Origin: Shigella phage Moonfish
DNA: 64,000 nt
Sequence record: PQ613263
Reading direction: 5' to 3' (one strand)
The notes beneath the pieces are model-generated. The model searched no databases and was not told the DNA's origin. It saw only the letters and a list, made by a program, of their open reading frames with translations. Of the stretch, positions 9,466 through 32,694 are shown in pieces (position 1 is the first letter of the stretch; the number at the start of each line of letters is the position of its first letter). The position numbers were made by a program, and so were the translations under genes.

Positions 9466-12400
9466 TTGAACAGGAAACATGCTATGTCAACATTTGACCG
9501 TCTGGCAGGTTTCGCAGACAGCATCACTAATGCCAAGCAAGTCGATGTCTCTACTGCAACCTCTCAGAAGCAAGCTGCACAAGGGCAAAGCCCTTTCCAA
9601 TTAACCCCAGAGAATGCTTACAATCTCCAGACTGGACGTGTAGGTAATCTTGGAACTGGTGCATTCGAACCAGGTTCACTTCAGGCTGACTTCACTCAAG
9701 CCTCCCCATTAGAAATCATTAATAAGTACGGTAATGAGAAAGGTTTACAGATTCTTAATAGCCGAGCTAATGCTGCTGATGTTGTACGTCAGGACTTATC
9801 TAAACAGCGTACTAACGCAGAAGCATTTGGCGATACTCTTTCTGGTGTTGGTCTTGGTGTTGCTAATACCCTTGGGGGCATTGCTGCTCTTGGCACAGGT
9901 CTGGTCAATGATAATGCCGGGGCATCCATTGCTTCCGGGATGGATTGGCTGAATGAAGGTGTACGCAATCTCCAGTCTGATGCACTGAATGCTACCCGTA
10001 AAGTTGTTCAGAATCAGAACCAGATTTCTGCTCAAAAGAACCAGAAACTTTACGAGCAAGATATTAAGAATGGGGAGAACGATTTGGTTGCCTCCCTGTC
10101 TCGCATTGGTCGTGACGCTTTTGATTCTGTTGCTAATACACTTGATAATGGTATGGCTGCTACCGATGGACTGAGCGAAGGTGTTGGTTCCCTCTTTACT
10201 GCTGGTCCACTTATCCGTGGTGTGTCTGCATTAGGTAAAGTAATGGTTGGTGGTGATAAAGCTGTTAGGGGTATTACCTTAGCTGCTGAGTTGGGTTCAC
10301 GTCCTGCACAGGTTGCACTGTCTGCTGGTCGCGTTGCTGCACCTGCTATTGCAATCGGTGGCATGGAAGCAGGTGGTGCATACCAACAGACTGCATCTGA
10401 AATCATGAAGATGTCCCACCAAGAATTGGCAAGTAAGTCTCCTGTTTACCAACAACATATTGCTGATGGTTTACCTCCTGATGAAGCACGTCGTCAGACT
10501 GCATCTGAAACAGGTATCACTGCTGCTGGCTTAACTGCTCCAGTTGCTGCTGCTACTGGTCCACTGGTATCTCGCTTTGAACTTAACCCACTTAGAGTAG
10601 GTTCACTGGCTGGTGCTGGTTCTAATATGTTACGTGAGACTGTAGAAGAAGGTATTCAATCCGGCTTTGGTCAGTTCGCACAGAATACTGCAATCAAGGA
10701 AAATGTTGATGCATCCCGTGACACCCTCAAAGGGGTCGGTGAGCAAGCAGGGCTTGGTGCACTCTACGGCTTCGGTAGTGCTGGAGTTGCTCAAGCTCCT
10801 GGTGCAACTGTTAAAGCTGCTGGTGCTGCCACTGCTCCTGTTGTACGTACTACCCTGGCTGGTGCTTCTCTGGTTGGTAATGCATTAGCTAAAGCTGCTT
10901 CCCCTATTACTAACATTCTGGTTCAACGTGGTGAAGAAGTTGCTAAGCGTAATGAACAAGCATCCCCTGTAGCTGATGCTACGGTTAATGCTGCTGCACA
11001 AGAAGCTACTGCTCAGGCAGAACAAGCACAAGCGACTGTACAGGAAGCAGTAGATGCAATGGATATCTCTCCTGAGGAGAAGGCTGCTGCTACTCAGTAT
11101 GCTGCTGACTTAACTCAGGCAATGAACTTTGACCCTGTAGAATTGGAACAAGCTAACCCGGTAATTCGTGAAGCTGTTTCTGGTTCCACTAACCGTGTTG
11201 AAGCTATTCAGAAGATGGCTGACTTGGTTAATACAGCAGAAGACCCTAACGTTCAAATGGAAGCTGCTATCCAGATGTATGACAACATCATGTCTATGGA
11301 TAGCTTCATTAACCGTGACCCAGGTGCACTGGCTAATCTGGAACAGGGTTCACCTGCTGCTACAATCGTAGACCAGTTCTCTGGTCTGATGGCTAACGTA
11401 CAGAATACACCGAAGGTACTTCGTGCATTCCGTGCTATCCATTCCATGATTCAGGAACAGGCTGAAGCAGGTAAGCTGAAAGCTACTGAAGAAGCTAACC
11501 AAGCTCAAGCAAACAACATTGCCATGGCTGCTGACGTGTCTCCAGAAGTATTGGATGCAGATTCAGTGAACATGGTTCTGAAACATGCAAGTGAAGGTAA
11601 GATTACACTGGGGAATCGTCAACGTGCTGCCCTGCAATCTGCTGCTGCCTTGTTACAGGGTGCACGAGAGTTTGACGCTAAAGCAGAAGAACTAGGCTTA
11701 CGTCCTCAAGACATTGTTAGTAAACAAATTAAAACCGACGAGTCTCGTTCTAACGAAGGACAGTACTCTGCGTTGCAACATGCGAAACGCATTCGTTCTG
11801 CGTATAACTCTGGTAACTTCGATTTGGCTTACGCTTATCTGAGCGACTTTATGAAGTTCGCCCAGCACATGCAGAATAAGGTCGGAGCGTTGAATGAGCA
11901 TCTGATTTCTGGGAATGCGGATAAGAATAAGTCTGTTCATTATCAGGCTCTCTCGCCTTCCCGTGAATGGGTACGTAGTCGTACTGGCCTCGGTGTCAAT
12001 CCTTACGATACCAAGTCTGTTAAGTTTGCCCAGCAAGTAGGACTGGAGGCCAAAACCGTAGCTGATATTGCTAACGCACTTGCTACGGCTTACCCGGAGC
12101 TTAATGTTTCTCATGTGAAAGTTACCTCGTTGGATTCACGTCTGAACAAGCCAGCTGCCCAGGTAGTTAAAGAGTTCCGTCAAGGTGGTCTTGATGCCAC
12201 TCAGTCTCAACAGACCAATGAACCAGTGAATCAGGTTGATGAATCTCCTGCACCAGTGCAAGAGGACACTACTACTGTACAGCCTAAAGCTAAACCTGTG
12301 GTAGAAAATAAGACTGCTCCTACTAAGGAGACTAGCCCAAAAACAGAAGAAGTCTCTACTACCAAGTCTGAAACAGTAGAAGCTACCCTCACTAATGAGG

Positions 12401-15400
12401 ATACCATCCAGGAAGTAGCTGAAACCAAAACAGAAATGGAAACAGTGTTCCCCGTCTATAACAATGAAAAGACACCGAACCAGTTCCTGAAAGCATTTAC
12501 CCTACCAGAAGAACCTAAGTCTCGTACCATTGGTTCTGAGTCTCCGTTGACTGATGTTAAGCAAGCACTGTCTTCTGTTGCTCGCTTTGAAGCATTCACT
12601 CAAAAAGAAAATAACGCTCTCACAGGTGATGTGATTAAGCGTTATCAGGACTTAATGGACTTTGGTGAAACTCTGAAGACTACTTTGTCTGAACGACTGG
12701 CTAAGTTCCTTGCTAACAAAAATGTCGGTAAACGTTTTGCAGAAGGTACGGAAGCTAACCGTTGGGTAGGTGGCAAACTACTGAATATCGTTGAACAAGA
12801 TGGTGACACCTTTAAGTTCAATGACCAGTTGTTAGAGACTGCTGTGCTTGCTGGTCTGCAATGGCGACTAACTGCTACACAGAATGCTGCTGTTAAAGAC
12901 ATGAAAGACGTAGCTGCTATTACGGGTGTAGAAGCATCTCTGTTACCAGAAGGTATTCTGGCTGAGTTCGAGAATGCTCAGACTCTGGTTGAAGCTACTA
13001 ACTCACTGGCTCAGAAGATCGAATCCTACTGGGGTTTGAACCGTAACCCTAATGCACCACTGGGTTATACCAAGGGTATCCCAATGGCAATGGCTACAGA
13101 GATTCTGTCTTCCCTCATTGAGATGGGTGAAGTTAAAGAGTCTATGCTGGATGTGTCTGAGATTGACCCAGATTCCAATAAGACTGTCGGCCTGTATACC
13201 ATTGAGAAGCTGGATGACAATGATGCCATTAACAAATTCCCTACTGCTATTGAGGAAGCTGTCCTCTTAGAACCAGAAGAGAAAATGTATTTCGGTGACG
13301 ACATTCCTTCCGTGGCTCAAACTCAATTACGTAATCCTGCTGTTAAGAATACCCCGGAACAGAAAGCTGCTCTGAAAGTAGAACAGGCTACTGAGTTCCG
13401 TGTACACATGCCGATGGTTAACTTCTATGAAGCTATGGGCCGTGACAACATACTGGAATTGATGGGTGCTGGTTCTCTTAATCCTGAACTGTTGAACGTG
13501 AACACTGCTAAGTCACTGGAGGGTAAAAACCTGTCCGTGTCCATGGCATATGATTCCTTGTTTGGTGTAATCAATCAGATTAAGGAACAGGAGAATGGAC
13601 TAGATACACCTATCCACTATGGCTACAACATGACCCGTGTAGGTCGTATGCAGATGCTTGGTAAGAACAACCCACAGTCCAGCAAACTGGTACGTGAAGC
13701 AATCCTGCCAACCTTCTCTACTATTGACTTGAGTAATGAAAACAGCCAAACGTTCTCTGACTTCCAGTTAGGTCTGGCTCAGGCATTGGGTATCAAGGTT
13801 CATAATATGTCCCGTGAAGCTATGTCTGAAAAGCTGACCAAAGCTTTGGAAGGTAATCTGAAACCTGCTGTTGATATGATGGTTGAGTTTGATAAGTCTG
13901 GTCACTTACCTGCTGATGCAGTTGATATTCTGAAGACATCTCTGGGTGGCGATAAATCATTCGTAGCTCTCATGGCTCTTATGGAATATGCCCGTTACCT
14001 GAACAGTGATGACCGTGCCAACTTTAATACCCCTCTGTACGTTGAAGCCGATGGTGTAACCAACGGTCCGATTAACGCAATGGTATTAATGACTGGTGGT
14101 AAGTTCACTCCAGACTGGATTAAGAATACTGCTAAAGGTGGTTTGTTCTTCGGTAAAGCTGGTAAGACTATGAACGAACATCGTTCACAGGATGACAGTG
14201 TTGACTTGTATGAAGCATCCACCAATGGTCTGCAACAAGCATTGGGTGAATTGCGTAGTACTTACCGTAACAACGTTCCTGTTATGAGCCAGATGAACCA
14301 TCTCCAGAAGTTAATGGACCTGTTCATCAAAGACTTTAACTTGAATGAAGACGGTACTTTGGACCTGAAACGTGGTATCGCTAAAAACCCACTGACTATT
14401 ACCATCTATGGTTCTGGTGCACGTGGTATTGCTGGCAAGATGGTTAGTGCAATTACTGACACCATCTATGAACGCTTCAGTGACGTTCTGCAAGCACGTG
14501 CTGCTGACCCTAGCATTTCCCCAGCTATGGCGATGTTTGGTAAGGAGGCTGCGTCTGAGGCTGATGCTCAGGCTATGCTGGATACTTTCCTTACTTCTAT
14601 GGAAGCACTGACTGGTAATGTTCCAGTTATGCGTAAAGGCGAACTGTCTATTCAACAGGCAGAAGGTGCTCTGACTGGTAAGTTAGACCCTCAGAAGTTT
14701 ACTGTATCTGGTAATGCCTTGAAGAACCTACAAGAGAACATGCTTCACTTGTTCGTTGAACCAATGCGTACAGGTATCCGTAATACTGTTGGTGAAGGTC
14801 TGATGCACTCTACTGAGAACTTGCAGAAGGCTACTCAGATTCAGTCTCTGGTATTGCAGGATATGTTCCAACAAGCAGTACAGGCTAAACTGGCAGAAAA
14901 AGAAAATGACCCAACGTGGAAGAAGGGTGATTTCTTAACACAGAAAGAACTGAATGAAATTCAGGAATCATTATCTCCACTGGCTCCAATGATTGAGACT
15001 GGCGCACAGACTTTCTACATTGCTGGCAGTGAGAATACTGATGTTGCTAACCAAGTACTGGCTACCAACTTAGATGACCGTATGCGTGTGCCAATGAGCA
15101 TCTATGCCCCGTCACAAGCAGGTGTTGCTGGTATTCCATTTATGACCATCGGTACTGGTGATGGCATGATGATGCAGACCCTTTCTACTATGAAAGGTGC
15201 TCCGAAGAATACCCTGAAAATCTTTGATGGCATGAACATTGGTATCAATGACATCACTGATGCAAGCCGTAAAGCTAATGAGGCTGTATACACTTCCTGG
15301 CAGGGTAACCCTATCAAGAATGTTTATGACTCCTTCGCTAAGTTCATGAAGAATGTAGACTTCAGTAAACTGTCTGATGAAACCAAACAGGCTATCGCTA

Positions 15401-18400
15401 AGTCTGCTCTGGAATACGACCAGCGTGAAGGTGCTACTGATGACCTGTTACGTGTTGGTGCTGAACAGATTGAACGTAATCTGCGTAACATTGCTCTGGG
15501 TGTAGATATTCGCCATAAAGTAATGAACCAGGTACAGACTACTGTTGACCAGATGGCTGCTGTAGGTGCTCCTTATGTGAACAACGGTAAAATTTCTCTG
15601 GAAGGTCTGACTGTAGACCAGCAAGTAGCTAAGCTGAACGAACTGTTTGATGCTGAATTAATCAAGCGTCGTGATGCAGTACGTGCTGCTAAAGCAGAAC
15701 CAGTGAAAGAAGTACCGGCGATGGAGCAGGTTGGTCGTGTGCTGAAGTCTGGTGTACGTCTGCTGTCTAACACTGCTATTACTAAGCTGGCTAAAGAGAT
15801 GTCTCCTGAACAGCAAGCAGTATTGAAAGAAGTACAGAACTCCCTTGCTGCTAAAGACTACAAGGTTGTTTATGGTACTCCTGCTCAACTGGATGCTTAC
15901 GCTATTGAGAAGAACATTACTCGCCCAGCACCGGAAGATATTGAAGCTGCTGAAGCTGGTAATGCATACGGCTGGACTAACTTTGATGATAAGACCATCT
16001 ACTTAGTTACTCCTTCCTTAGAGACTCTGGTTCATGAATTGGTACATGCTTCTACTTTCGAATCTGTACTGGCTCACTATGAAGGTACTCCTAATGAAGC
16101 AGTCCAGAATATTGAAGACCTGATGAACCAGTTCCGTGCTCTGGATGTTAAGGATGAATCTCCGGCAGTACGTGAAGCATATGCTGATGCTCTCAATACC
16201 ATTAATGGTCACTTGTCTAATGGCTTTATTGAGCCAGCAATGGCTAAAGCTGCTGCACTTAATGAGTACATGGCATGGGGTTTAACCAACCGTGAACTGA
16301 TTGGTAAGCAGAAGAAAACCACTGCACTTAAGGCCATGGTTCAGTCTGTATATGAAGCAATTAAACGTCTGGTATTTGGGCGTAAGAAAGCTCCTGCTAA
16401 TGCAGATGATATGTTCTCTGGCTTACTGTTTAACTCCTCCGTAGTTATGCGTGGGCAAGCTCCTACTGCTGCTGTGGCTAAGGACACTACCTTGTTCCAT
16501 AGCAAAGCATATGGAGATAACACTCGTCTGGAAGAGTTAGGACAGACCTTCGATAAGCTGATTACTAACTACATTGGTTCAGAACCAGTACAGCAAGTAA
16601 TCCGTAAAGGTAAATTCTCTGATGCAGTAGTGAATGCAACAAAAGTAACTCGTGATGTTCAGGCTCATGGTTTCACTATGAATATGCAGGAACAGCGTCT
16701 CTTTACTAACATTGTTGCTGCACTGGCTACTGAAGCTGCTATTAGCCCAGCTGCTCTGGCTCGTGCACAGGAATACTATGCACACGTTACTAAGAACCTG
16801 ACCGTTGAAGCATTCATGGCTGACCCGGAAAGTACTAACCCTGCTGACCGTTACTACGCACAGCAGAAGTTCGATACCATCATGGGTGCTAACAATATTG
16901 AGTTTGATGCACAGGGTCGTTCTTCCTTACTGCCTACCTTCGTGGCTCTGGCAATGGTAAGTGAAGATGTACGTAACGTACTGGCTGGCATTCCTGTTAT
17001 GAAAGCAGATAAGCAATCTGGTAATACTGTTGATGCAATGCTGACTAACATTGGTACTGCTGCAATGGCTAGCCTGAATGCTCGTGTAGCAGGAGACACT
17101 AAAGCTACCAACGTGCAAGAAGGTATGGATGCACTGGCTCAGACAATCATGCAGACTAGCCTCAATGCACAGTCTTTCTACGATTCCGTTGCTACTCCTA
17201 GTGGTAATGCTATTGACCGTGCTAACCAGTATCTGGTGGACTCTATTGATGTACTGTCTACTCGTGCTTTAGATGGTGCACGTAATGTTGCAGCTAATAC
17301 CAAGAACCCATTGGTTAAAGGTGCTGCTCATGCTGCACAACTGGTAGCTGCTATTGCTACGGAGAAGAATGGTGCAATCGTAGCCGAAGGTGTTATGGCT
17401 GCAATGAACCAGGGTAAGGTATGGCAACCCTTCCATGACTTAGTTAATGACTTAACTGGTCGTACTAAGAGCAATGCTTCTGTATACGATTTAATTAAAG
17501 CAGTACGTGCACAGGTACAAGCTGACCGTCAGCAATTCCGTGAACATCTGCCTACCACTATCGCATCTAAGTTCAGCCGTAAGCTGACTAATGATGAGTG
17601 GAAAGCAATGCATACCGGCATGGGTAAAACTGATTTAGCTGTACTGCGTGACACTATGTCACTGGCTGAAATCCGTGACCTGTTGTCTGACCAGAAGATT
17701 GTTGACCGTGAAGTGAACAAGCTGGAAGCAGATTTGCAGAAACAAGCTGGGCGTAACTGGCCACTGATTAACCGTAAATCTAAGCAACTGGCTCAGTACA
17801 TGATTAACGGCACAGTTGGTAATAATCTGCTGCGTAATGCTACTGCAATCTCTCGTATGCTGGGCGAACGTCAGTCTGCACGTTCTACTGTAGATGTAGC
17901 TCAACTGGATAAACTTATTACCCTGTATGCACTGGAAGCAATGAGCAAAGCTGACCGTGAGCTGTTATCTTCCCTGGCTCAATCAGAAGTTGATGGAATG
18001 GATTTTGCTACTTCTTATCTGGTTGGACAGCGTAAAGATGAAATGGCTAAAGCTAAAACTGATAGCCGTGCAACATTGAACCAGTATAAAGGGCATATCC
18101 CTAGCGAGACTAAGCAGGGTGTTAACCTGATTGTTGCTGAAGATAGCCAGTTTGCTGATTTGATTGAGAAATCCTATGTACGTCTGGGTACTTATCAGGG
18201 TAGTTCTGCTAACCGTGGGCCAGCACGTAGCTACTACTTCGCACCAGTACAGGCACAGGCTCCATTCTCACAGGGCATCTTACAGAACGTTCGTAATACT
18301 GCTGGTGGTGTAGATCTTGGTACAGGCTTTACGATGGGTTCTATGGTAGCAGGTCGTATCACAGACAAGCCTTCAGTAGACCGTATCACTAAAGCTCTGG

Positions 18401-19836
18401 CCCGTGGTGAACGCGGTAATGAACCACTGCTGCCTGTATACGATGACAAAGGTAATGTAGTTGCATATGAGCAGTCTATAGACCCTAACATGCTGAAGCA
18501 CATTGAGGGTGAGAACCATCTTGCACGTGCAATCGGTGTATGGCGTGGTCGTCAGGTGGAAGAAGCTAAGGCTCAGCGTTTTAATGACATGCTGATAGAG
18601 AACCTGCATAGCATGTATGAGAACGACATTAAGATGTCTGCCTCCAATAAGTCCCAGTACGTGAACCTTCTTGGTTCTAAACTGGACCCAGTAACTGCTG
18701 ATGCTCTTAAGCTGATGAACAGTGAGACACGTCAGAAAGCAGAAAGCCTGTTTGGTAATGGTGAACTGTGGGTACGTCGTGACATGCTTAATGATGCTCT
18801 TGGTTATCGTGCAGCTTCTGTAGGTGATGCCTGGTCTGGTAATTCTCGTTGGTCCCCAGAAACGCTGGATACCTTCAAGAAAGCTATGTTAGGTGTGTTC
18901 GGCAATCGTGCTTATAAGTACACAATGGGAGGTGAGAACCTGGTACAGAACTTAGTTAAAGAAGCTAAGACCCTGATTGTAATTAAGTCAGTAGTCGTAC
19001 CTGCTGTTAACTTCTTGGCTAACCTTTACCAGATGGTTGCTCGTGGTGTACCAGTTAAGAACATTGCTAAGAGCATTCCACAGAAAACTGCTGAGATTAA
19101 CCAGTACCTGAAATCTCGTCTGCGTCAGGTAGATGCAGAAGCAGAATTACGTGCAGCTACCAACCCGAACCAGATTCGTAAGCTTAAGGCTGAGATTCAA
19201 TCCATCTCTGATAGCCATAAGCGTATGAGTATCTGGCCTCTGCTGGAAGCTGGTGAGTTCTCTTCAATTGCAGATGCTGGTATTGGGCGTGATGACATCC
19301 TGATTACCGAAGGTAAACTTCAGGAATATATGGATAAACTGGCTGATAAGTTGCCTAAGTCTGTACGTACTGCTGGGCGGTATGCACTCATCACTAAGGA
19401 TACTGCTCTTTTCCAGGGTATCCAGAAAACCGTTGAGTACTCTGACTTTATCGCTAAAGCAATCATCTATGATGAATTGACTCAGCGTAAAGGCAAGACT
19501 CGTGAAGAAGCACTTGGACGTGTAACTGAAGAGTTTGTTAACTATGACCGTCTGCCTGGTCGCTTCCGTGGATATATGGAAAGCGTTGGTTTAATGTGGT
19601 TCTACAACTTTAAGATTCGTTCTGCAAAAGTTGCAGTATCCATGATTCGTAATAACCCAGTACATGCAGCAATGGCTATGTTGGCTCCAGCTCCTACCAT
19701 GTTTGGTAACGTTGGTCTGCCTATTCAGGACAACGTATTTAGTATTGCTGCTAAGGGTGGGCTGGATTCTTCTTGGGGCTTTGGTCAGGGGCTGCGTGCT
19801 CACAACCTGAACCCTTGGTTGAACCTGGTAAACTAA
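9466..19836 (+). CDS. virion-encapsidated giant RNA polymerase (vRNAP, N4 gp50-like)
   Basis: Single uninterrupted 3456-aa ORF (10.4 kb) at the end of the virion gene module; a protein of this size in this position is the hallmark of N4-like phages. All antisense ORFs inside it are short. Confidence 0.9.
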   Translation: MNRKHAMSTFDRLAGFADSITNAKQVDVSTATSQKQAAQGQSPFQLTPENAYNLQTGRVGNLGTGAFEPGSLQADFTQASPLEIINKYGNEKGLQILNSRANAADVVRQDLSKQRTNAEAFGDTLSGVGLGVANTLGGIAALGTGLVNDNAGASIASGMDWLNEGVRNLQSDALNATRKVVQNQNQISAQKNQKLYEQDIKNGENDLVASLSRIGRDAFDSVANTLDNGMAATDGLSEGVGSLFTAGPLIRGVSALGKVMVGGDKAVRGITLAAELGSRPAQVALSAGRVAAPAIAIGGMEAGGAYQQTASEIMKMSHQELASKSPVYQQHIADGLPPDEARRQTASETGITAAGLTAPVAAATGPLVSRFELNPLRVGSLAGAGSNMLRETVEEGIQSGFGQFAQNTAIKENVDASRDTLKGVGEQAGLGALYGFGSAGVAQAPGATVKAAGAATAPVVRTTLAGASLVGNALAKAASPITNILVQRGEEVAKRNEQASPVADATVNAAAQEATAQAEQAQATVQEAVDAMDISPEEKAAATQYAADLTQAMNFDPVELEQANPVIREAVSGSTNRVEAIQKMADLVNTAEDPNVQMEAAIQMYDNIMSMDSFINRDPGALANLEQGSPAATIVDQFSGLMANVQNTPKVLRAFRAIHSMIQEQAEAGKLKATEEANQAQANNIAMAADVSPEVLDADSVNMVLKHASEGKITLGNRQRAALQSAAALLQGAREFDAKAEELGLRPQDIVSKQIKTDESRSNEGQYSALQHAKRIRSAYNSGNFDLAYAYLSDFMKFAQHMQNKVGALNEHLISGNADKNKSVHYQALSPSREWVRSRTGLGVNPYDTKSVKFAQQVGLEAKTVADIANALATAYPELNVSHVKVTSLDSRLNKPAAQVVKEFRQGGLDATQSQQTNEPVNQVDESPAPVQEDTTTVQPKAKPVVENKTAPTKETSPKTEEVSTTKSETVEATLTNEDTIQEVAETKTEMETVFPVYNNEKTPNQFLKAFTLPEEPKSRTIGSESPLTDVKQALSSVARFEAFTQKENNALTGDVIKRYQDLMDFGETLKTTLSERLAKFLANKNVGKRFAEGTEANRWVGGKLLNIVEQDGDTFKFNDQLLETAVLAGLQWRLTATQNAAVKDMKDVAAITGVEASLLPEGILAEFENAQTLVEATNSLAQKIESYWGLNRNPNAPLGYTKGIPMAMATEILSSLIEMGEVKESMLDVSEIDPDSNKTVGLYTIEKLDDNDAINKFPTAIEEAVLLEPEEKMYFGDDIPSVAQTQLRNPAVKNTPEQKAALKVEQATEFRVHMPMVNFYEAMGRDNILELMGAGSLNPELLNVNTAKSLEGKNLSVSMAYDSLFGVINQIKEQENGLDTPIHYGYNMTRVGRMQMLGKNNPQSSKLVREAILPTFSTIDLSNENSQTFSDFQLGLAQALGIKVHNMSREAMSEKLTKALEGNLKPAVDMMVEFDKSGHLPADAVDILKTSLGGDKSFVALMALMEYARYLNSDDRANFNTPLYVEADGVTNGPINAMVLMTGGKFTPDWIKNTAKGGLFFGKAGKTMNEHRSQDDSVDLYEASTNGLQQALGELRSTYRNNVPVMSQMNHLQKLMDLFIKDFNLNEDGTLDLKRGIAKNPLTITIYGSGARGIAGKMVSAITDTIYERFSDVLQARAADPSISPAMAMFGKEAASEADAQAMLDTFLTSMEALTGNVPVMRKGELSIQQAEGALTGKLDPQKFTVSGNALKNLQENMLHLFVEPMRTGIRNTVGEGLMHSTENLQKATQIQSLVLQDMFQQAVQAKLAEKENDPTWKKGDFLTQKELNEIQESLSPLAPMIETGAQTFYIAGSENTDVANQVLATNLDDRMRVPMSIYAPSQAGVAGIPFMTIGTGDGMMMQTLSTMKGAPKNTLKIFDGMNIGINDITDASRKANEAVYTSWQGNPIKNVYDSFAKFMKNVDFSKLSDETKQAIAKSALEYDQREGATDDLLRVGAEQIERNLRNIALGVDIRHKVMNQVQTTVDQMAAVGAPYVNNGKISLEGLTVDQQVAKLNELFDAELIKRRDAVRAAKAEPVKEVPAMEQVGRVLKSGVRLLSNTAITKLAKEMSPEQQAVLKEVQNSLAAKDYKVVYGTPAQLDAYAIEKNITRPAPEDIEAAEAGNAYGWTNFDDKTIYLVTPSLETLVHELVHASTFESVLAHYEGTPNEAVQNIEDLMNQFRALDVKDESPAVREAYADALNTINGHLSNGFIEPAMAKAAALNEYMAWGLTNRELIGKQKKTTALKAMVQSVYEAIKRLVFGRKKAPANADDMFSGLLFNSSVVMRGQAPTAAVAKDTTLFHSKAYGDNTRLEELGQTFDKLITNYIGSEPVQQVIRKGKFSDAVVNATKVTRDVQAHGFTMNMQEQRLFTNIVAALATEAAISPAALARAQEYYAHVTKNLTVEAFMADPESTNPADRYYAQQKFDTIMGANNIEFDAQGRSSLLPTFVALAMVSEDVRNVLAGIPVMKADKQSGNTVDAMLTNIGTAAMASLNARVAGDTKATNVQEGMDALAQTIMQTSLNAQSFYDSVATPSGNAIDRANQYLVDSIDVLSTRALDGARNVAANTKNPLVKGAAHAAQLVAAIATEKNGAIVAEGVMAAMNQGKVWQPFHDLVNDLTGRTKSNASVYDLIKAVRAQVQADRQQFREHLPTTIASKFSRKLTNDEWKAMHTGMGKTDLAVLRDTMSLAEIRDLLSDQKIVDREVNKLEADLQKQAGRNWPLINRKSKQLAQYMINGTVGNNLLRNATAISRMLGERQSARSTVDVAQLDKLITLYALEAMSKADRELLSSLAQSEVDGMDFATSYLVGQRKDEMAKAKTDSRATLNQYKGHIPSETKQGVNLIVAEDSQFADLIEKSYVRLGTYQGSSANRGPARSYYFAPVQAQAPFSQGILQNVRNTAGGVDLGTGFTMGSMVAGRITDKPSVDRITKALARGERGNEPLLPVYDDKGNVVAYEQSIDPNMLKHIEGENHLARAIGVWRGRQVEEAKAQRFNDMLIENLHSMYENDIKMSASNKSQYVNLLGSKLDPVTADALKLMNSETRQKAESLFGNGELWVRRDMLNDALGYRAASVGDAWSGNSRWSPETLDTFKKAMLGVFGNRAYKYTMGGENLVQNLVKEAKTLIVIKSVVVPAVNFLANLYQMVARGVPVKNIAKSIPQKTAEINQYLKSRLRQVDAEAELRAATNPNQIRKLKAEIQSISDSHKRMSIWPLLEAGEFSSIADAGIGRDDILITEGKLQEYMDKLADKLPKSVRTAGRYALITKDTALFQGIQKTVEYSDFIAKAIIYDELTQRKGKTREEALGRVTEEFVNYDRLPGRFRGYMESVGLMWFYNFKIRSAKVAVSMIRNNPVHAAMAMLAPAPTMFGNVGLPIQDNVFSIAAKGGLDSSWGFGQGLRAHNLNPWLNLVN

Positions 19837-20310: not shown

Positions 20311-20826
20311 CTACATGATTATCCAGTCTTCGGCTAATATATCTGATTGTGAGGGAACCCAGGGCATAAACTCATTATCAACCGTTTTAATTCCCAACCA
20401 ATGTCGTTTCCTGCAAGTGGAATTCTCATGTTTATCCATGGACCAATATTTACTTGATACCAAGGTGATATACATTCCTTTTCCATTCCAGGCTTTACGG
20501 CTCATTCTAGAGCCAGTCTTCACAAGTTCAATTGCGCAACCAAAGGTGCAGCCTTTATCCACATTAAAGTAAGTGGACTCAAATACAGGTGCCGGTGACC
20601 AGCTAATATAGCCACGGAATTGGGGATGGTTGGGCAGGGAATCTGTATACTCGACTAAGTAACCATTCTCTGATGGGTCTTCATCTGCTGGTACATCCCA
20701 GCCACGAAGTTTGCAGTATGTTCCCTTATTCATCGGGAAACCATTTACATGCTTGGTTCCAATATAGTTAGAGAACTGAACTTTAATTTCTTCTGTCATA
20801 TCTACCTCAAACGAGAAAGCCCTCAC
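20311..20826 (-). CDS. hypothetical protein (Cys/Trp-rich)
   Basis: 171-aa ORF, coding-like composition. Confidence 0.55.
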   Translation of the reverse strand: MRAFSFEVDMTEEIKVQFSNYIGTKHVNGFPMNKGTYCKLRGWDVPADEDPSENGYLVEYTDSLPNHPQFRGYISWSPAPVFESTYFNVDKGCTFGCAIELVKTGSRMSRKAWNGKGMYITLVSSKYWSMDKHENSTCRKRHWLGIKTVDNEFMPWVPSQSDILAEDWIIM

Positions 20827-20917: not shown

Positions 20918-21310
20918 TTAAATTGTGCAACCACCACCGTCACATGTGTTGTTTTCTGCAAAGGAAGCCAGTGCCTTAGCAGTCTCCTCTTTCTCATGCA
21001 GTACCTGTCGTAGCAGGTAACCTTCTAATTCCCAAATCTTATTGAATGCATTTTCATATGCATACCGACGACCTACCCACTCATCATAGATAGCTGGGTC
21101 AACACAGGCAGATACGCCTTCAACTTTGAAGCCATTTTCCAGGATGATAGTGCAATAGGTTACTAGGCTCAGATTAGCCAAATCATCTTCCGGGATTGCA
21201 GAAGGGTTAGCGAACCCAGACTTCACTGCATCAGCACCATTGAAATAGTAGACACTTTTGATTTTAGCTTCGATTGATTCTTTACTTACTGTTGCCATTA
21301 TTAGCCTCAT
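20918..21310 (-). CDS. hypothetical protein
   Basis: 130-aa ORF; true start may be the internal Met at MATVSK. Confidence 0.5.
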   Translation of the reverse strand: MRLIMATVSKESIEAKIKSVYYFNGADAVKSGFANPSAIPEDDLANLSLVTYCTIILENGFKVEGVSACVDPAIYDEWVGRRYAYENAFNKIWELEGYLLRQVLHEKEETAKALASFAENNTCDGGGCTI

Positions 21311-21494: not shown

Positions 21495-21654
21495 TAGTAG
21501 CTTTTAATAGATAGCTGTATTTGAGCATTATAGTCTGCTCATACTCACACTCTTCTGTCGAAGAATATGTTTACAATACCTAGAGTGCCGGACTGTCTTA
21601 CCGGCATTGTCTTTAGAGTGCTAAGCAATCAGGACTATGTTCTCTATTAATGGG

Positions 21655-21728
21655 TGCCCACTACTGGATTTGAACCAGTGACTTTCCGATTATTAGTCGG
21701 TTGCTTTCCCCGTCTAAGCTAAGCGGGC
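21655..21728 (-). tRNA. tRNA gene (manual fold); anticodon loop CUAAUAA, anticodon AAU if numbering is canonical (Ile-type; A34 is unusual)
   Basis: Folded by hand on minus strand: acceptor GCCCGCT/AGTGGGC (one G.U), D-stem GCTT/AAGC with GG in D-loop, anticodon stem CCGA/UCGG, perfect T-arm ACTGG-TTCAAAT-CCAGT, discriminator A. Confidence 0.6.
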
Positions 21729-21929
21729 ATTGATAGGTGAGTCCTGCCAGGCTTTAACTGGCTCCTTCTTCGCAATCCTTACATACCCCTACATAATTAT
21801 TGCGTTAAGCTTTTTTGTTTAAGTTTAAGTGAAGGCGTTCTTGCTGACTCATAATTAGGTGAGGCGTTTGACGAATGACTAGTTCGTTACTACCTCGTTG
21901 TTTGCCATAAGTACCTGGCGACTTCAGGT

Positions 21930-23034: not shown

Positions 23035-23511
23035 TTAACTACGTTTCAGGCCAGCGAACAGTGAAGGTTTCGCAGCAGGTTTCTCTGCTGGTTCTTCAAC
23101 CTTAACTTCTTCCTGCACAACTTCTTCTTGTGCTTCTGGTTCAGCTACTGCTTCTTCTTCTACAGCAACTTCTACTTCAGGTTCCGGCGTAGAACTCTCG
23201 TTCTGACCACCAGTAGAGGTCTGGGTTTCCTCTTCCTTTACCTCTTCAGCCTGAGCTTCTTCTTCTTCCTCTACAACTTCCGGTTCTACCGGACGATGTT
23301 TGGCTTCCTGAGGGTTCTTACGAGGACGACGTGTCTTCTTACCTACCAAGGGTGGAGTATCATCGTTATGATTTACCTCTTCGTTGATACCAACGGAGGC
23401 TGTACCATCTGCATTGATGACAATACTAATGTCACCAGCAAGATTGATTTGATCATCTACATAAGCCTGTACAGCAGCTTCTACTTCGGACTGGTTCAAA
23501 ATGATTTGCAT
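23035..23511 (-). CDS. acidic Glu/Pro-rich protein of unknown function
   Basis: 158-aa ORF; C-terminal two-thirds dominated by E, V, P, A repeats (…EEEEEAQAEEVKEEETQ…PEPEVEVAVEEEAVAEPEAQEE…). Confidence 0.6.
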   Translation of the reverse strand: MQIILNQSEVEAAVQAYVDDQINLAGDISIVINADGTASVGINEEVNHNDDTPPLVGKKTRRPRKNPQEAKHRPVEPEVVEEEEEAQAEEVKEEETQTSTGGQNESSTPEPEVEVAVEEEAVAEPEAQEEVVQEEVKVEEPAEKPAAKPSLFAGLKRS

Positions 23512-23512
23512 G

Positions 23513-24067
23513 TTACGCCTTTAATAATTTAATGAGGTTCTGGAAAGATGGGAGATTTACACCAGCGTGGATTGCACCGATTGCATCAGCCAAGTGCTCA
23601 TTCTTATTTAGAAGTTTGCCTTTCTTATCAGTGAGCCAGTTGGCTTCAGGATAAATGGCATGAGCAGCACGAATCATCGTGTCTTTGGATGCAGTCTTAT
23701 CACCGACCAGTGCAAGTTTGTTTTCAATTGGGGATACTTCAAAGATTGGACAACCCAATGCACGAAATGCACCGATTAATCCTACGCATACACCATAGGA
23801 CTTCATACCGTTAGCGGACTGAGAGCCTACTGGTACTTCTACGAATACTGCTTTAGCAGACCGTAACCATTCCTCACAACCAAGAAACAAATCATGAGAG
23901 GCTTGTATATCTTTGGAGTTGGTTCGAACTTGTTTGTTGTGGTCAACTTCAGTTTGAACCAGTTTAAGTTCGACCTGCTCGAAGACGCCGGACTCAATGT
24001 CCAGCATCCCACGAGCTAAACCCCAATTGCGGAGACTAATATCTGCACCAACAATTGGGATTTTCAT
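23513..24067 (-). CDS. RuvC-like Holliday junction resolvase
   Basis: 184 aa; N-terminal IVGADISLRNWGLA resembles the RuvC ILGIDPG motif; C-terminal HLADAIGAIHAG resembles the RuvC D-A-x-D-A-x-A-I signature. Confidence 0.6.
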   Translation of the reverse strand: MKIPIVGADISLRNWGLARGMLDIESGVFEQVELKLVQTEVDHNKQVRTNSKDIQASHDLFLGCEEWLRSAKAVFVEVPVGSQSANGMKSYGVCVGLIGAFRALGCPIFEVSPIENKLALVGDKTASKDTMIRAAHAIYPEANWLTDKKGKLLNKNEHLADAIGAIHAGVNLPSFQNLIKLLKA

Positions 24068-24864
24068 TATTTCTTACCGAACAGTGATTTACCACCTGCC
24101 GGAGCAGGACCAGTGTTAGCACCCGGTTTAGGAGGCAAGCCACCTTTACCATTACCACCAGCAGAACCCTTGGTCTTATCACGGGTTTTACCTTTGTTCT
24201 TTTCCAACCATGCTGTATGGAATACAGCCAGTTCTGGGGTCAGTTCTTTCTCAGCCTTCTCTGCTTCCTGAGCCTCGATGACTGTGACCAGCAGTTCCGG
24301 GTGAAACACTTTCTGAATCTCGTTTACTTCACGAGTTTCACCAGAGTCAACGTAACCGTTGTCACCTTTAACCTGCTTAGCTTCCAGAACCTTTTCCAGA
24401 GCAAAGGTAACAGTCTGACCTACCAGTTCAACTGGAACCATGACAGACTTGTTGGTTTCTGCTTTCAGGTCAAAGTCATAGACTTTAACAATCTTCTCTT
24501 CGAAGTCAGCATCCGGCAGTTCATTACCAGTAGCCATCAGCATCATGTCATTAATGACAGTGTAACCAGGCAGGAAGTATTCTTTACCGTTCTTCTCGTA
24601 AGTCGGCTTGTTGCCTTTAGCATTACCAGAAGTGAAGTACACCTGGGCACGGAACTCACCAGCATCATTTCCATCGGAACCTTTCAGGTTTTCGATGATT
24701 AACTGCATCCAGTCTGCACCGGAGTCAGCTTTACCTACGTAAGCTACTTTTACAGTACCGGTATAGATATCAGTTTCTTTGGCACCGAAGCCACCACCAC
24801 CAAGGGAGTCTTTTGCAGCTTCAACGTTTTTGGTTTTTTCTTTCAAGTTACCGAACAGTGACAT
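24067..24864 (-). CDS. single-stranded DNA-binding protein (N4-type SSB candidate)
   Basis: 265-aa ORF with Gly-rich basic C-terminus, located between resolvase and ATPase genes; size and position match N4 SSB (inference, not motif-based). Confidence 0.5.
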   Translation of the reverse strand: MSLFGNLKEKTKNVEAAKDSLGGGGFGAKETDIYTGTVKVAYVGKADSGADWMQLIIENLKGSDGNDAGEFRAQVYFTSGNAKGNKPTYEKNGKEYFLPGYTVINDMMLMATGNELPDADFEEKIVKVYDFDLKAETNKSVMVPVELVGQTVTFALEKVLEAKQVKGDNGYVDSGETREVNEIQKVFHPELLVTVIEAQEAEKAEKELTPELAVFHTAWLEKNKGKTRDKTKGSAGGNGKGGLPPKPGANTGPAPAGGKSLFGKK

Positions 24865-24905: not shown

Positions 24906-25658
24906 TTAAGCGTAGTATTCAGCCAGATGGTCTAAGAGTTTTTGAGCGTCATTATCAATGTACGTCTCTGATTTATCGAACATACCCATTGGGGAACGTA
25001 AGCGTTTACCAACAGACTTCTTGGTTGGGCGAGTCTGGAATACGTGCTTATAGCCTAAGTCACGTTCTTCTTCGGTAATTTCAAGCATCTTGTTGCCATA
25101 CTTCTCCAGTTCTTTAATGTCTACACGTTCTGCGTAAACCACTGTAGAGAAGTATGCCTCAAGGCCATTATTCTTCAGGGAGCCTTTCACTGGGATGAAG
25201 GTTTTCATCACACCAGCTGCCTCGTCGAGTTCATCTTTGGCATGAGCAGTAATGATTACAGGCTTACCAAACTTAACAACTTTCTGTTGCAGCAGTACTT
25301 TAAAGAACTGTGCAAAGTCTCCCCAGGCTTTCTGGGTATTAGCAGATGGCAATACATATTGTGATTCCAACATGTCCATCATGAAGGTAGCAGAGTCGAT
25401 AATGATACCATCAACATCGTCTGCCATTTCCCCACCCGGAGATGCAACATCAAATGCTTCCCAAATCTGATATGGGTCTTCAATGTTGTAGGTGTTGAAC
25501 TTATTACGGAAAGGTAGGCGTTTACCTGCTTCAGTATTCAGATACAACCAGCGTTCCTGGTTACGAATATTACGCAGTGATGCTGATTTACCACTCGCTG
25601 AAAATCCTGCAATCAGGATTAGCTGAGTGTTCATATCATTGGAAATTTCTTCGGACAT
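24906..25658 (-). CDS. P-loop ATPase, Sak4/AAA_24-like recombination ATPase candidate
   Basis: 250 aa; Walker A GFSASGKS near N-terminus; compact RecA-like size; adjacent to SSB and nuclease genes. Confidence 0.5.
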   Translation of the reverse strand: MSEEISNDMNTQLILIAGFSASGKSASLRNIRNQERWLYLNTEAGKRLPFRNKFNTYNIEDPYQIWEAFDVASPGGEMADDVDGIIIDSATFMMDMLESQYVLPSANTQKAWGDFAQFFKVLLQQKVVKFGKPVIITAHAKDELDEAAGVMKTFIPVKGSLKNNGLEAYFSTVVYAERVDIKELEKYGNKMLEITEEERDLGYKHVFQTRPTKKSVGKRLRSPMGMFDKSETYIDNDAQKLLDHLAEYYA

Positions 25659-29107: not shown

Positions 29108-29412
29108 TATTCCCCCTTAGGAACCATGTTTGCTTGGAACTCTGGTTCAGACATTAGACCCAGATTGTTAATAGACAGATAAACAATGTCTTTTAAATCA
29201 ACTGAGGTGTCGAAACGCTGGTCCAGACTAATCTTCAAGGAATGGTTGGCACGGGCCAAATCTTTGTAGGTCACATGAGGTTCGTCAGTGAGCAGCATTG
29301 TGTTCATGGTAAGCAGGGAACCATCATCAGCTTTAGGAAGCTGGAAGATTACCTGTGCTGCTACCATCCAATGATATTTTCTGACAACGGTTTCTTTAGT
29401 ACTTTTAGTCAT
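29107..29412 (-). CDS. hypothetical protein
   Basis: 101-aa ORF, start/stop overlaps with neighbours. Confidence 0.45.
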   Translation of the reverse strand: MTKSTKETVVRKYHWMVAAQVIFQLPKADDGSLLTMNTMLLTDEPHVTYKDLARANHSLKISLDQRFDTSVDLKDIVYLSINNLGLMSEPEFQANMVPKGE

Positions 29413-30317
29413 GCGAATGCCTTTTGAATTATTTGATGAACTTCTTCAGGGGTAGCGTGATTTGGAATCTCAATCTCGTTAGCCCACGTTGGGTAGAACA
29501 AGGACAGTTCCCCACCCAAACCAACTTCTGGATGAGCAATATCAGGATGGTCTTGCCAGTTAACGGCTTCAACCAAATGCTTGTTCGTGTACTGCAAGGT
29601 ATCCATGTTGTCACGAATCATGAAGTACTGAGCATCATGAATGTGAATACTAGGACGAATATCTAACCTGAACTCACTGGCTCTAACTTTACGCATAAAC
29701 TCCGAGCCAGCACGGTTATTCAGTAGGCACCAGCTTTGCCCTAAGGCATTACCAGCAGTTCTACCTTCAGCTTCTGCTTCATATGGAGTCTTACATGTCC
29801 CACGTAAAACCTGAGCCAGTAAAGGAGTACGCACTCTCAAACCAAATGCAGCAGTTACATAACCAGTCTTGGCAGCTTCGTCTAGCTTAGCCTGAACCCA
29901 AGCATCACTAACTACATAAAGGTCGTGATAACGTTTCTCTGTGAGCTTTGCTTTCTCTTCCGAGAAGCCACAGTTCTTCATTAAGCCCATATACGTACCA
30001 CCATAGGTAAGCAGGAAGGTTGGAGCCTTCGAGTCACCTCGTAATGATTTGTATTTGTGCTGGATGGAGTTGATGGATTCAACCGTATCTACAATGTCTG
30101 GCATCTGCTCACCGAAGTAAGCATACGCACGAAGACTGTGCCCATCATAACCATCGGTATATACCTTAAGTTTCTGGGGGTCTTTCGTAGTCAATGCAGA
30201 GATACGGTCTTCAAGGCTTGCAAAGTCCAGTCCACAAAATATCCAACCTGGGGGTGCTTCGAAGCATTTCTTAATCTTCTTGGCATATTTGGAACCACTA
30301 GGGATGGTCTGTAGATT
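29409..30317 (-). CDS. DNA polymerase (family A) 3' exon: polymerase palm/fingers part
   Basis: Begins in-frame with NLQTIP..., contains GLDFASLEDRI (motif A, DYSQIELR-like), KAPTFLLTYGGTYMG (motif B) and IHIHDAQY (motif C HD); joins exon 1 to restore RLSASEP-NLQTIP. Confidence 0.8.
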   Translation of the reverse strand, partial: NLQTIPSGSKYAKKIKKCFEAPPGWIFCGLDFASLEDRISALTTKDPQKLKVYTDGYDGHSLRAYAYFGEQMPDIVDTVESINSIQHKYKSLRGDSKAPTFLLTYGGTYMGLMKNCGFSEEKAKLTEKRYHDLYVVSDAWVQAKLDEAAKTGYVTAAFGLRVRTPLLAQVLRGTCKTPYEAEAEGRTAGNALGQSWCLLNNRAGSEFMRKVRASEFRLDIRPSIHIHDAQYFMIRDNMDTLQYTNKHLVEAVNWQDHPDIAHPEVGLGGELSLFYPTWANEIEIPNHATPEEVHQIIQKAFA

Positions 30318-31023
30318 CCTGATGTTCAGCATGGGTCGTTAATCCATGCCCGTCTTTCGACTGCTGCATATTCCTATGCAGAGCAGACTATATCATCACG
30401 CCAGATAGTAAGGCGTGCCATGCGCTTCCACCCACTTGAGTGTACTCTCTTTCGAGATAGTCGTTGCACCTTTCAATGCTGCGTGTAACCGAGCGTGGTC
30501 AGGAACACTTAGCAATACAAGATTATCAAAGTCGTTGTTATACGGATTCTCATCACAATGATGCACACACCAGCCTTTTGGTATTTCACTGATATTAAGT
30601 GCCTCACATACTACCACATGGTGAGCAAAAACGTGTTTACTGCCTTTGCGTGCAGTATACCAATCCGGTTTAAGTACCATTAAGTAACCTTTACTGTCGG
30701 ATACTAAACCTTTGTAGTTATGATGGTCTTTCCCAAATTTACCTAGCATGGGGTTATTTTCCCCCAGCTTGGAGCGTCGGTAAGACTTTGCATTTCTGTT
30801 TTGACGGTATTCTTTACTGTAGTTCTCCATAATATATTTAGAGACTTTTTTGTAATTAATACCTAAACGCTTTGATATTTCTGCTTGAGATAGGTCAGTA
30901 TTCTCGTACAGAGTCTTGATATCCATCATGTGCCTCCTAAGGCAGGTATGGTTGATTTGGCTCAGGATTGCCCGGTCTGGGTTTCCCCTGAATTCACATG
31001 GTTTAAATAGCCCAATTTATTTT
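30318..31023 (-). mobile_element. probable group I intron (706 nt) inside DNA polymerase gene, carrying an HNH homing endonuclease ORF
   Basis: Interrupts a conserved Pol A motif; 5' exon ends in U, intron ends in G; GGGCU 10 nt into the intron can pair with exon-end AGCCU (P1 with U.G); frame is preserved across the junction. Confidence 0.7.
30396..30929 (-). CDS. HNH homing endonuclease (intron-encoded)
   Basis: 177 aa; own RBS TAGGAGG; N-terminal HTH-like segment; C-terminal HNH motif CVHHCDENPYNNDFDNLVLLSVPDHARLH. Confidence 0.8.
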   Translation of the reverse strand: MMDIKTLYENTDLSQAEISKRLGINYKKVSKYIMENYSKEYRQNRNAKSYRRSKLGENNPMLGKFGKDHHNYKGLVSDSKGYLMVLKPDWYTARKGSKHVFAHHVVVCEALNISEIPKGWCVHHCDENPYNNDFDNLVLLSVPDHARLHAALKGATTISKESTLKWVEAHGTPYYLA

Positions 31024-32694
31024 AGGCTCTGAAGCCGATAACCTGCCGGAGACCGTGCCTCCCAAATTGAGATTACCGAACAGATAGTGCCAGCCATCCG
31101 GTCCCGGTTGGGCGTTCCTGAAAGCTGGTATAAAGCTAGTAATAATCTTATCCACGAGCTTATAGTCGATAAGAGCATTGAGCAGTTCCTTAACATCTTC
31201 ACTCTGCGTATGTGTACGCAGTGCTTTAATAGTGTCACCATCAGTAGCTGGTTGCTTGCTCTTAGTAAGACCAAGAACTGGTAAGCCAATAAAATCAAAT
31301 AACAATTTCTGTAACTGTGGACCGGAGTTAGGATTGAACTCGATGTCACAATCAGCCAATGTTACCTGCTTCTTCTTAAGCTTGGTATTCTTATCGTCTA
31401 CCCATTCCTGACGAAGCATCAGGGTGAAATTCTTCATGAGCTTAGACTCACGAATAGTTTTCAGAGCCTGGTTCCTGTCAGTTTCCATTTCCTCAGCTAC
31501 TTGGTTAACGGTTTCCATATTCATTGGCATACCGGTTAACTGCATCTGAATAATGTCTTCACAGGCAGGTTTAAAGATGTTGTTATAAACATCCAGTTGG
31601 TCATCAGCAATGAGAGTATCCCAGTGCTTCTCGTAGGTGTACCACGTACACAGTCCATCGATTAGGTTGTAGCGTAACAATTGCTCATTAGGAATAAGAC
31701 AAATGTCTTTGATATCGTCTTGAGCATAGTTACCGGCATACTCCTGAGCCTGGTCTTTCAGACTAAGGTGATTACCAGCACAACTGTTAGTAGCCAGATA
31801 AGTGATTAACTTAGTGCAGTCCCAGTTACGTAGCATGACGTTCATGCCATACAGTAGACCTTCTGTATCAATCAGGTTATCCATGAATAACTGATAGATA
31901 AGTACATACACGTCATAGCTAATGTTGTGATACATCTGCCGTTGGGTGTACTTAATGAAGAACTCACGTAACAGGTTACGGACAATATCATTTCTGTTGA
32001 TACGCCCATAAGGTGCTTCAGTAGCTCCCTTAATTGGCTCGTAGTCCACATTAAAAGCTATGCCTTGTGTCTTACTCCAACAGAATGTAATCGTTCCTAT
32101 ACCGGCGTTATAGTGCTTTAAACCGAATGATTCGATGTCTATAGCCAATGGCTTATTCATCTCCAGCAACTGGTCTAGCCAGGCTTTAATCTCTTCGGGG
32201 GTATCTGGGTAGGCCTCAAACTCAATGATTCCCTGACCTGGTTCAGCATACTGTCCACGTATGTGGTTAAGTAGTGCATCCATACCCTGAGCAATTTTAG
32301 CTCTCACTACAGGTGGGTCATAAAAGACCTGTCTGTAGTTAGGCGTATAGATAACCTTCTGCTTACCCCATACTGAGTCACAAACGTAGCCGAGGTTGGC
32401 CTCTGCTTTAGCTTCTTTAGTCAGTATTTTAAAGTAATCAGAATCGGTACAGATGACGTACTGAGTTTCTGCATCATCCAGTACTTGTTGCAGTTCCTGC
32501 TGTATGAACTCCTTAATCTCCTTTGCAGGAGTCTTCTTTTTGCCGGGGGCAGAGTGAAGTTCAAGGAAGATAAAATCTTCCATGCTTAGGTCATATGGCA
32601 GCAGGTAGGTTTTAATCATCTCCTCCCTTCGGATTTGATGACCGAGGATAGCAATAGGATATTTACCCGTATCCTGAGAGGTGATGTAACGCAT
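31024..32694 (-). CDS. DNA polymerase (family A) 5' exon: 3'-5' exonuclease and N-terminal polymerase part
   Basis: Contains Exo I LAIDIESF; ends ...TVSGRLSASEP (then KINWAI* if unspliced), i.e. truncated in the middle of the conserved RLSSSDPNLQNIP motif. Confidence 0.8.

Follow-up and report, generated by a model that had tools for sequence, protein, structure and literature searches.

The acidic gp47-like protein of an N4-type Shigella phage: resolvase linkage, a predicted disordered linker and a terminal peptide shared with the phage SSB

DNA mimics and decoys have well-known precedents among phage proteins, including T7 Ocr, T7 gp5.9 and lambda Gam, the last of which is encoded beside recombination genes, as is the protein considered here. 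In Ocr, ArdA, Ugi, gp5.9 and Gam, the carboxylates are carried on a rigid fold. Another design is found in SSB C-terminal tips, such as those of Escherichia coli SSB (DDDIPF), HK620 SSB (NDYPPF) and N4SSB, where a disordered linker joins a folded core to a conserved hydrophobic-Phe peptide. Short peptides also direct proteins to the sliding clamp, and clamp-binding motifs are present on the T4 late-transcription factors gp33 and gp55. In phage HK620, Sak4 is recruited only if the SSB keeps its last six residues (PMC5928155), while N4SSB binds the beta' subunit of RNA polymerase and cannot support late activation without its C-terminus (PMC4496689). MuC, the late activator of phage Mu, carries a clamp-binding motif at each terminus (consensus QL[SD]LF), and Mor works with only 'DLF' (PMC12867686).

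Here, we describe how a protein of Shigella phage Moonfish compares with these systems. The window, that is, the whole stretch of DNA analyzed, comprises 64,000 nucleotides of sequence record PQ613263. Its phage is a G7C-like N4-type phage (Schitoviridae); the 4-kb stretch around the gene of interest shares 93% identity with Escherichia phage vB_EcoP_G7C and matches 92 N4-like records. The gene lies on the minus strand at positions 23035-23511, starts with ATG and encodes 158 amino acids. An initial annotation, made from the sequence alone, had described its product as a highly acidic, Glu/Pro-rich protein next to recombination genes and had suggested a DNA mimic or a nucleoid- or protein-binding factor.

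The profile of PHROG 7641 aligned with the protein over its full length (E=1.4e-60; residues 1-158 on profile positions 1-151 of 151). Judged by sequence and gene position, the protein is the ortholog of N4 gp47 and a member of PHROG 7641, a family of unknown function, and is referred to below as gp47-like. Every feature of that family was found, namely the full-length profile match, the gene position, and the N-domain together with the C-terminal peptide; in alignments, the family signature consists of an N-terminal MQI(T/I)LNQxE(V/I)E alpha/beta domain and a C-terminal KPSLFAGLK. A literature search found no functional or fitness data on N4 gp47. Homologs number 631 in a large protein collection, nearly all of them from contigs of 70-75 kb, and the presence of more than 600 homologs, together with in-frame indels, indicates that the ORF is a real gene. 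When the single sequence was searched against 1.84 billion representatives, 14 matches were returned, two of which (P0125, a 2990-aa repeat adhesin, and P0133, a repeat protein) were discarded as composition or repeat artefacts. An antisense ORF of 134 aa (23128-23532, plus strand), rich in Phe, Leu and Ser, was likewise set aside as a mirror of the GAA-rich acidic tract with no gene evidence. Scans for sigma-70 promoters and terminators around the gp47-like gene stayed at background level.

Architecture and conservation of the gp47-like protein

The protein contains 33 Glu (20.9%), 19 Val, 17 Ala and 12 Pro; its net charge is -25 and its pI 4.2. Its Glu content is about three times the mean (6.8%) of the 57 plausible window ORFs of at least 100 aa, its charge per residue (-0.158) is the most negative in that set (runner-up, -0.094), and the most negative 70-aa stretch among these ORFs (-26) also belongs to it. 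This acidity is no chance fluctuation. The initial description as acidic and Glu-rich is therefore well founded, but Pro is only moderately enriched, Val and Ala being commoner. The charge is also unevenly distributed: residues 1-50 have a net charge of -9 and contain neither Lys nor Arg, a 20-aa window at residues 57-76 reaches +7, residues 77-146 have a net charge of -24, and the last 12 residues +3. The suggested polyanionic C-terminal two-thirds thus corresponds to residues 77-146, but it is not uniform, since residues 57-76 and the last 12 residues are basic.

Four parts can be distinguished. The folded N-domain (aa 1-45; 23377-23511, minus strand) is acidic and free of Lys and Arg, and was predicted by AF2 from a 13-sequence alignment, with pLDDT 82-91, as a helix (residues 7-21) packed on a beta-hairpin (strands 28-32 and 38-42). 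A Foldseek comparison of the N-domain model with the PDB gave no significant match (best E=1.3), and a Foldseek search of BFVD with the gp47-like model returned Schitoviridae relatives only. In a model of a RusA fusion, described below, the N-domain again has a pLDDT of about 90, and the remainder of the gp47-like unit is unstructured there too. The N-domain can be recognised in 159 phage records, whose hosts belong to at least ten genera; a profile search with its alignment yielded, among the matches listed, close relatives only. The second part is a basic patch (aa 57-76, GKKTRRPRKNPQEAKHRPVE; 23284-23343, minus strand), which stands out in the charge profile, is conserved within the clade, and has a KKTR..R...EAKH[RV]P pattern that recurs in diverged relatives. 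It is followed by the acidic tract (aa 77-146; 23074-23283, minus strand), which is predicted to be disordered. Beyond the N-domain, AF2 produced no secondary structure, with pLDDT values of 41-52 in the tract, below 50 at residues 79-92 and 112-139, and in a charge-hydropathy calculation residues 46-158 fell within the disordered range. No charge periodicity is evident in the tract, the autocorrelation of acidic residues at lags 1-7 lying within about 2 sd of shuffled sequences. The last part is a C-terminal short linear motif (aa 147-158, AKPSLFAGLKRS; 23038-23073, minus strand) that includes L151, F152 and L155.

Conservation follows these divisions closely. Among the 120 close homologs listed, column conservation is 0.98 in the N-domain, 0.98 in the basic patch and 0.96 in the last 12 residues, and only 0.71 in the acidic tract, which has gaps in 36 columns and is the least conserved and most indel-prone part. 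These homologs are 145-162 aa long; the KPSLF[AD]GLKRS tip is present in 120 of 120, the C-terminus KPSLFAGLKRS being essentially invariant throughout, and the tract has a net charge of -16 to -28 in 119 close homologs. By these sequence comparisons, extreme acidity is a trait of the G7C-like genus. Across the family as a whole, linker length and charge vary, so that only the N-domain and the tip are kept throughout.

Two islands are discernible in the part of the protein that had been called low complexity. One is the basic island KKTRRPRKNPQEAKHRPVE (23284-23343, minus strand), with 98% column conservation in the 120 homologs listed, and the other is uncharged (TQTSTGGQNESSTPEPE; about 23176-23226, minus strand); both recur in diverged members of the clade.

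N4 gp47 (YP_950525) resembles the window protein in its N-domain, KHRPV basic island, E-rich linker and KPSLFAGLKR end, the latter being encoded, on the N4 side, by the N4-species isolate Bas69 and by another reading frame of the N4 record. The window tract is longer and far more acidic, the net charge of the whole protein being -25 versus -5 for N4 gp47 as annotated, that is, with a frameshifted C-terminus. In the N4 record NC_008720 (L001:7679-8113), the C-terminus ...EEEKKYRKKRLKNQYKPNLLCLQV before the stop codon appears frameshifted, and the other frame ends ...EEEAKEPVQAKPSLFAGLKR before its stop codon; in AlfredRasser/Bas69 (L046:1501-1932), which belongs to the same species as N4, gp47 terminates in frame with ...EEEKEVQEEEAKEPVQAKPSLFAGLKR and a stop codon. 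On these sequences, the frameshift in the N4 record probably reflects an error of sequencing or a mutation of the laboratory strain.

Gene neighbourhood and resolvase partners

Upstream of the gp47-like gene, the minus strand encodes a DNA primase, a Sak4-like AAA ATPase (gp44 homolog; 24906-25658; PF13479 E=6e-11, phrog_124 E=8e-50), an N4-type SSB (gp45 homolog; 24067-24864; phrog_743 E=2.7e-89, supported by comparison with N4 gp45) and a RuvC-like Holliday junction resolvase (N4 gp46 homolog; 23513-24067; phrog_159 E=3.4e-42), whose stop codon lies 1 nt before the gp47-like start. The earlier statement that the gene adjoins recombination genes is borne out by this arrangement. The order primase, Sak4-like, SSB, resolvase and gp47-like, followed by small ORFs or tRNAs and a convergent virion RNA polymerase gene, was found in 11 of 11 annotated Schitoviridae inspected, comprising N4 and phages of Rhizobium, Sinorhizobium, P. 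putida, P. aeruginosa, Erwinia, Achromobacter, Alcaligenes, Stenotrophomonas, Xanthomonas and Klebsiella, whose hosts are alpha-, beta- and gammaproteobacterial. A further 33 IMG/VR loci have a matching gene order, and across the resulting set of ~45 loci a resolvase precedes the gp47-like gene with one exception, an environmental Schitoviridae locus (L030:4077-5324) where the SSB and gp47-like genes are direct neighbours, in that order, without an intervening resolvase ORF.

Several other features of the window deserve mention. A single tRNA-Ile gene (21651-21729, minus strand) lies between the end of the gp47-like operon and the gp49-like gene, and related phages have 3-5 tRNAs there. Further along the minus strand, a 171-aa protein with a Tad2-like (Thoeris anti-defence 2) domain (20311-20826; PF11195 E=6e-22) adjoins an N4 gp49-family protein (20918-21310; PF13876 E=7e-26), both assigned by Pfam. 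The family A DNA polymerase gene (29409-32694, minus strand) is split into ORFs 31003-32694, covering PF00476 positions 12-128, and 29409-30332, covering positions 127-303, with an HNH endonuclease ORF (30396-30929; PF13392) between the two.

Where the resolvase and gp47-like proteins are encoded separately, their genes are 0-24 nt apart or overlap. The resolvase in front of gp47-like is drawn from three PHROG families: the N4-type RuvC-like phrog_159 (25 loci); phrog_1770, in a marine/environmental clade (E about 1e-29); and RusA, which is a separate gene in Klebsiella phage Pylas and is fused in frame before the gp47-like unit in six loci. Altogether, at least 120 proteins were found with RusA fused in front of a gp47-like unit, in Rhizobium, Sinorhizobium, Pseudomonas ZC08 and environmental Schitoviridae phages (PHROGs 14238, 1682 and 21721). 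These fusions resemble the window protein in the N-domain, a net-negative disordered linker and the tip, which takes the form KSLF[AG]NL.KP.N. Their linkers span 28-181 aa with net charges of +6 to -21, about 90% being clearly negative and about 10% near neutral or positive. All 120 fusions listed carry the tip motif, and its Phe is as invariant as the catalytic Asp residues of RusA in a 101-sequence alignment. No report of gp47-resolvase fusions, or of the three-site motif described below, was found in the literature.

The gp47-like protein itself was considered as a resolvase and rejected. It has no RusA or RuvC domain, and its match to phrog_14238, annotated 'RusA-like', is weak (E=1.3e-4) and covers profile positions 145-266 only, which correspond to the gp47-like part of the fusions.

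A peptide shared with the SSB termini

Both ends of the SSB carry copies of a peptide akin to the gp47-like tip. In the window, the N-terminal copy reads MSLFGNLKE (24838-24864, minus strand; N4 counterpart MSNLFGNLAG) and the C-terminal copy reads GGKSLFGKK (24070-24096, minus strand). The SSB ends ...AGGKSLFGKK in the window and ...SAAKSLFGKK in N4, and the gp47-like protein ends ...AAKPSLFAGLKRS. A C-terminal peptide of the form [KR]-x-[SGKN]-[LIVM]-F-[GAS] is found on both the SSB and the gp47-like protein in essentially every locus (~45), the gp47-like tip being there in 44 of 44 loci, and the SSB N-terminal peptide (MSLFGNLKEK in the window) is kept in nearly all loci. From 27 distinct loci, the consensus is M-S-N-L-F-G-N-L-K for the SSB N-terminus, K-S-L-F-G-K-K for the SSB C-terminus, and [PK]-S-L-F-A-[GN]-L-K-[RK] for the gp47-like C-terminus. 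Such ends are rare elsewhere: among 262 window ORFs of at least 50 aa, the C-terminal tip occurs in three (the SSB, the gp47-like protein and one short, probably spurious ORF), and in a control set of 377 other ORFs from related loci the C-terminal form occurs in three and the N-terminal form in six.

When kinship among the loci is ignored, the SSB N-terminal peptide is closer to the gp47-like tip of its own locus than to the tips of other loci (p about 0.002); a similar comparison of the SSB C-terminus with the gp47-like tip showed no excess similarity within loci. The C-terminal 45 residues of the SSB are basic (mean +5.8) and the gp47-like tail is acidic (mean -7.6), the two charges being weakly anticorrelated when kinship is again ignored (rho -0.35, p=0.036).

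Set beside SSB C-terminal tips, the gp47-like protein shares the design of folded core, disordered linker and conserved hydrophobic-Phe peptide, and its peptide is shared literally with the cognate SSB. Unlike those tips, its own is basic (AKPSLFAGLKRS, net +3) rather than acidic, its linker is acidic, and its carrier is not an SSB. As in the clamp-binding tails of MuC, a short terminal [SDN]-L-F is present at both ends of a late-gene activator, here the SSB, and clamp motifs and the present peptide are each common to replication, repair and transcription proteins. However, the peptide described here lacks the consensus Gln and second-position Leu of clamp motifs, and the gp47-like carrier, in contrast to those of SSB and clamp-binding tails, is dedicated to, or fused with, a resolvase.

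A few further features were observed in passing. In N4-type SSBs, a conserved DRLGGG island follows the N-terminal MS(N)LFGNLK peptide, and the placement of the motif at both SSB termini recalls MuC. An M-[SG]-x-F start is also seen on the virion RNA polymerase (9466-19836, plus strand) and on the gp53 homolog (4313-6955, plus strand), and this start is conserved between the two phages (N4 gp50 MSVFDRLAG and window ...MSTFDRL; N4 gp53 MGLFSSKTK and window MGLFSGKTK). The sequence 'KSLY' lies near the end of an 887-aa ORF (37464-40127), which is probably not the polymerase because its C-terminus is unlike that of N4 gp39.

A tether for junction resolution and its alternatives

The reading that we favor, with a probability of roughly 45%, is that the gp47-like protein is not an enzyme but an accessory tether within the phage's module for recombination and junction resolution, coupling resolution to whatever binds the SSB termini. 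It builds on the observed architecture, conservation pattern, synteny, fusions and motif sharing. A disordered, net-negative leash would join the small folded N-domain to a C-terminal docking peptide, [KR]-x-S-L-F-[AG]-x-L-K. Given the kinship of the tip with the SSB-terminal peptides, we infer that it probably binds the same receptor, and this binding would bring the neighbouring or fused Holliday junction resolvase to sites marked by the SSB or its partners. The acidic leash may hold the tip extended and away from DNA, and the N-domain would work with the resolvase. A role in junction resolution is argued from the persistent coupling to a resolvase together with the stable RusA fusion in hundreds of sequences. 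Adjacency to the resolvase would by itself be weak evidence, since gene order in Schitoviridae is conserved in general, and the fusions may derive from a single ancient event. It is also implausible that one small N-domain binds resolvases of three families, so its role may be dimerisation or something else. The locus without a resolvase between the SSB and gp47-like genes counts against the tether. As for the receptor, a rough apportioning puts a phage protein (the SSB core, the Sak4-like gp44 homolog or the polymerase) at slightly worse than even odds; the Sak4-like protein is a candidate encoded in the same module. The host clamp appears a less probable receptor, the beta' subunit of RNA polymerase a somewhat weaker candidate still, and anything else improbable.

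The tether and the other readings are not all mutually exclusive. The closest to it takes the host beta sliding clamp as the receptor, with the three peptides acting as degenerate clamp-binding motifs by which SSB and resolvase dock there. Such an arrangement would be a specific version of the tether, compatible with it, in which late transcription and resolution are coupled to replication, as in T4 and Mu. A resolvase with such a contact is known from archaea, where Hjc binds PCNA. The SNLF and SLF cores match the last three positions of the QL[SD]LF consensus and are located at termini or in disordered tails, including both ends of the late activator SSB, much as MuC has one motif per terminus and Mor only 'DLF' (PMC12867686). 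The motif is also kept across phages of very different proteobacterial hosts, as would be expected for a conserved host target. However, the consensus Gln and the second-position Leu are absent, a basic residue is preferred, [KRP]-S-L-F matches only three of five positions, and the marine clade has SIF, SVF or KLF. A scan of the other window proteins for the consensus clamp-binding motif found none. On balance, this reading seems unlikely, though it is a reasonable minority view. Somewhat less credit is given to a modulator of late transcription, in which the tip would compete or cooperate with the N4SSB tail for the C-terminal region of RNA polymerase beta' and so time the late switch. The [KR]xSLF[GA] element common to the gp47-like tip and the N4SSB tail in essentially every locus would fit such a role, as would the weak anticorrelation between the basic SSB tail and the acidic gp47-like tail (rho -0.35, p=0.036). 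This explanation leaves the persistent resolvase linkage and the fusion unaccounted for, and the more specific likeness of the tip is to the N-terminal, not the C-terminal, peptide of the SSB. In addition, late activation has been obtained with purified RNA polymerase and N4SSB alone, which counts against an added modulator.

Two further readings assign the function to the acidic tract. According to one, the leash is an autoinhibitory pseudo-substrate that folds onto the basic DNA-binding face of the resolvase, in cis in the fusions and in trans otherwise, restraining a potentially toxic nuclease until the tip is engaged, a form of non-specific intramolecular DNA mimicry. The acidic tails of T7 gp2.5 and E. 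coli SSB, which bind the DNA-binding surfaces of their own proteins, lend it support. Electrostatics of this sort would be indifferent to resolvase family, as befits a protein found with three of them; about 90% of fusions have a net-negative linker, and the tight translational coupling suggests co-production with the resolvase. Against this stand the roughly 10% of fusions with a near-neutral or positive linker, and neither the invariant tip nor the N-domain is explained. We consider this reading as improbable as the late-transcription modulator. The least probable of all is the DNA mimic or decoy proposed initially, in which the polyanionic tract would imitate DNA and sequester a host restriction enzyme, RecBCD or a nucleoid protein. 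In its favor, the protein is the most acidic in the window, its acidity is kept in 119 close homologs and about 90% of fusions, and its gene lies inside the recombination module; it also resembles Ocr, ArdA, Ugi, gp5.9 and Gam in small size, very low pI and phage origin. In contrast to the rigid folds of those proteins, its acidic part is variable and aperiodic, and its predicted disorder would leave no rigid scaffold. The tract is the least conserved and most indel-prone region, and family members differ in linker charge (+6 to -21) and linker length (28 to 181 aa) while sharing an invariant N-domain and tip. A decoy fused to RusA in hundreds of phages would also be odd. The protein has no Pfam family at E <= 0.1, no relative in a PDB sequence search and no Foldseek match in the PDB better than E=1.3; it belongs to no known DNA-mimic family, sharing the charge of such proteins but neither their fold nor a relationship to them. 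Mimicry as a specific function is thus unsupported. The initial annotation had looked to homologs with a folded enzymatic domain and no acidic tract as counterexamples to its proposal; many homologs do have a folded RusA domain, but they keep the linker, which is near-neutral in about 10% of them. Of the nucleoid- or protein-binding factor that it also suggested, protein binding is plausible, the sole family-wide constants being a small domain and a terminal motif that is also found on the SSB termini.

Returning to the tether, a broader proposal can be made, which we hold only tentatively and regard as rather doubtful in its full extent: one hydrophobic-Phe peptide may be a common plug of Schitoviridae, carried at both SSB termini and at the C-terminus of gp47-like proteins and resolvase fusions, and linking replication, junction resolution and late transcription to a single hub, for which the host sliding clamp, the C-terminus of RNA polymerase beta' and the SSB filament are candidates. 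In that case, the 'activation tail' of N4SSB would belong to a motif network spanning the family, with gp47 tethering resolution or competitively timing it relative to late expression.

gp47 is a conserved, uncharacterised gene of N4-like phages, a large family used for phage therapy. What was an acidic hypothetical protein is now the subject of a concrete hypothesis tied to junction resolution and open to mutation of F152 and the tip. The SSB C-terminus, essential for late activation according to the literature, shares its motif with the SSB N-terminus and with a resolvase-linked protein. If it is true that one receptor serves all three peptides, this would explain how N4-type phages coordinate replication, DNA debranching and late transcription, and would help settle whether N4SSB acts only through RNA polymerase beta'.
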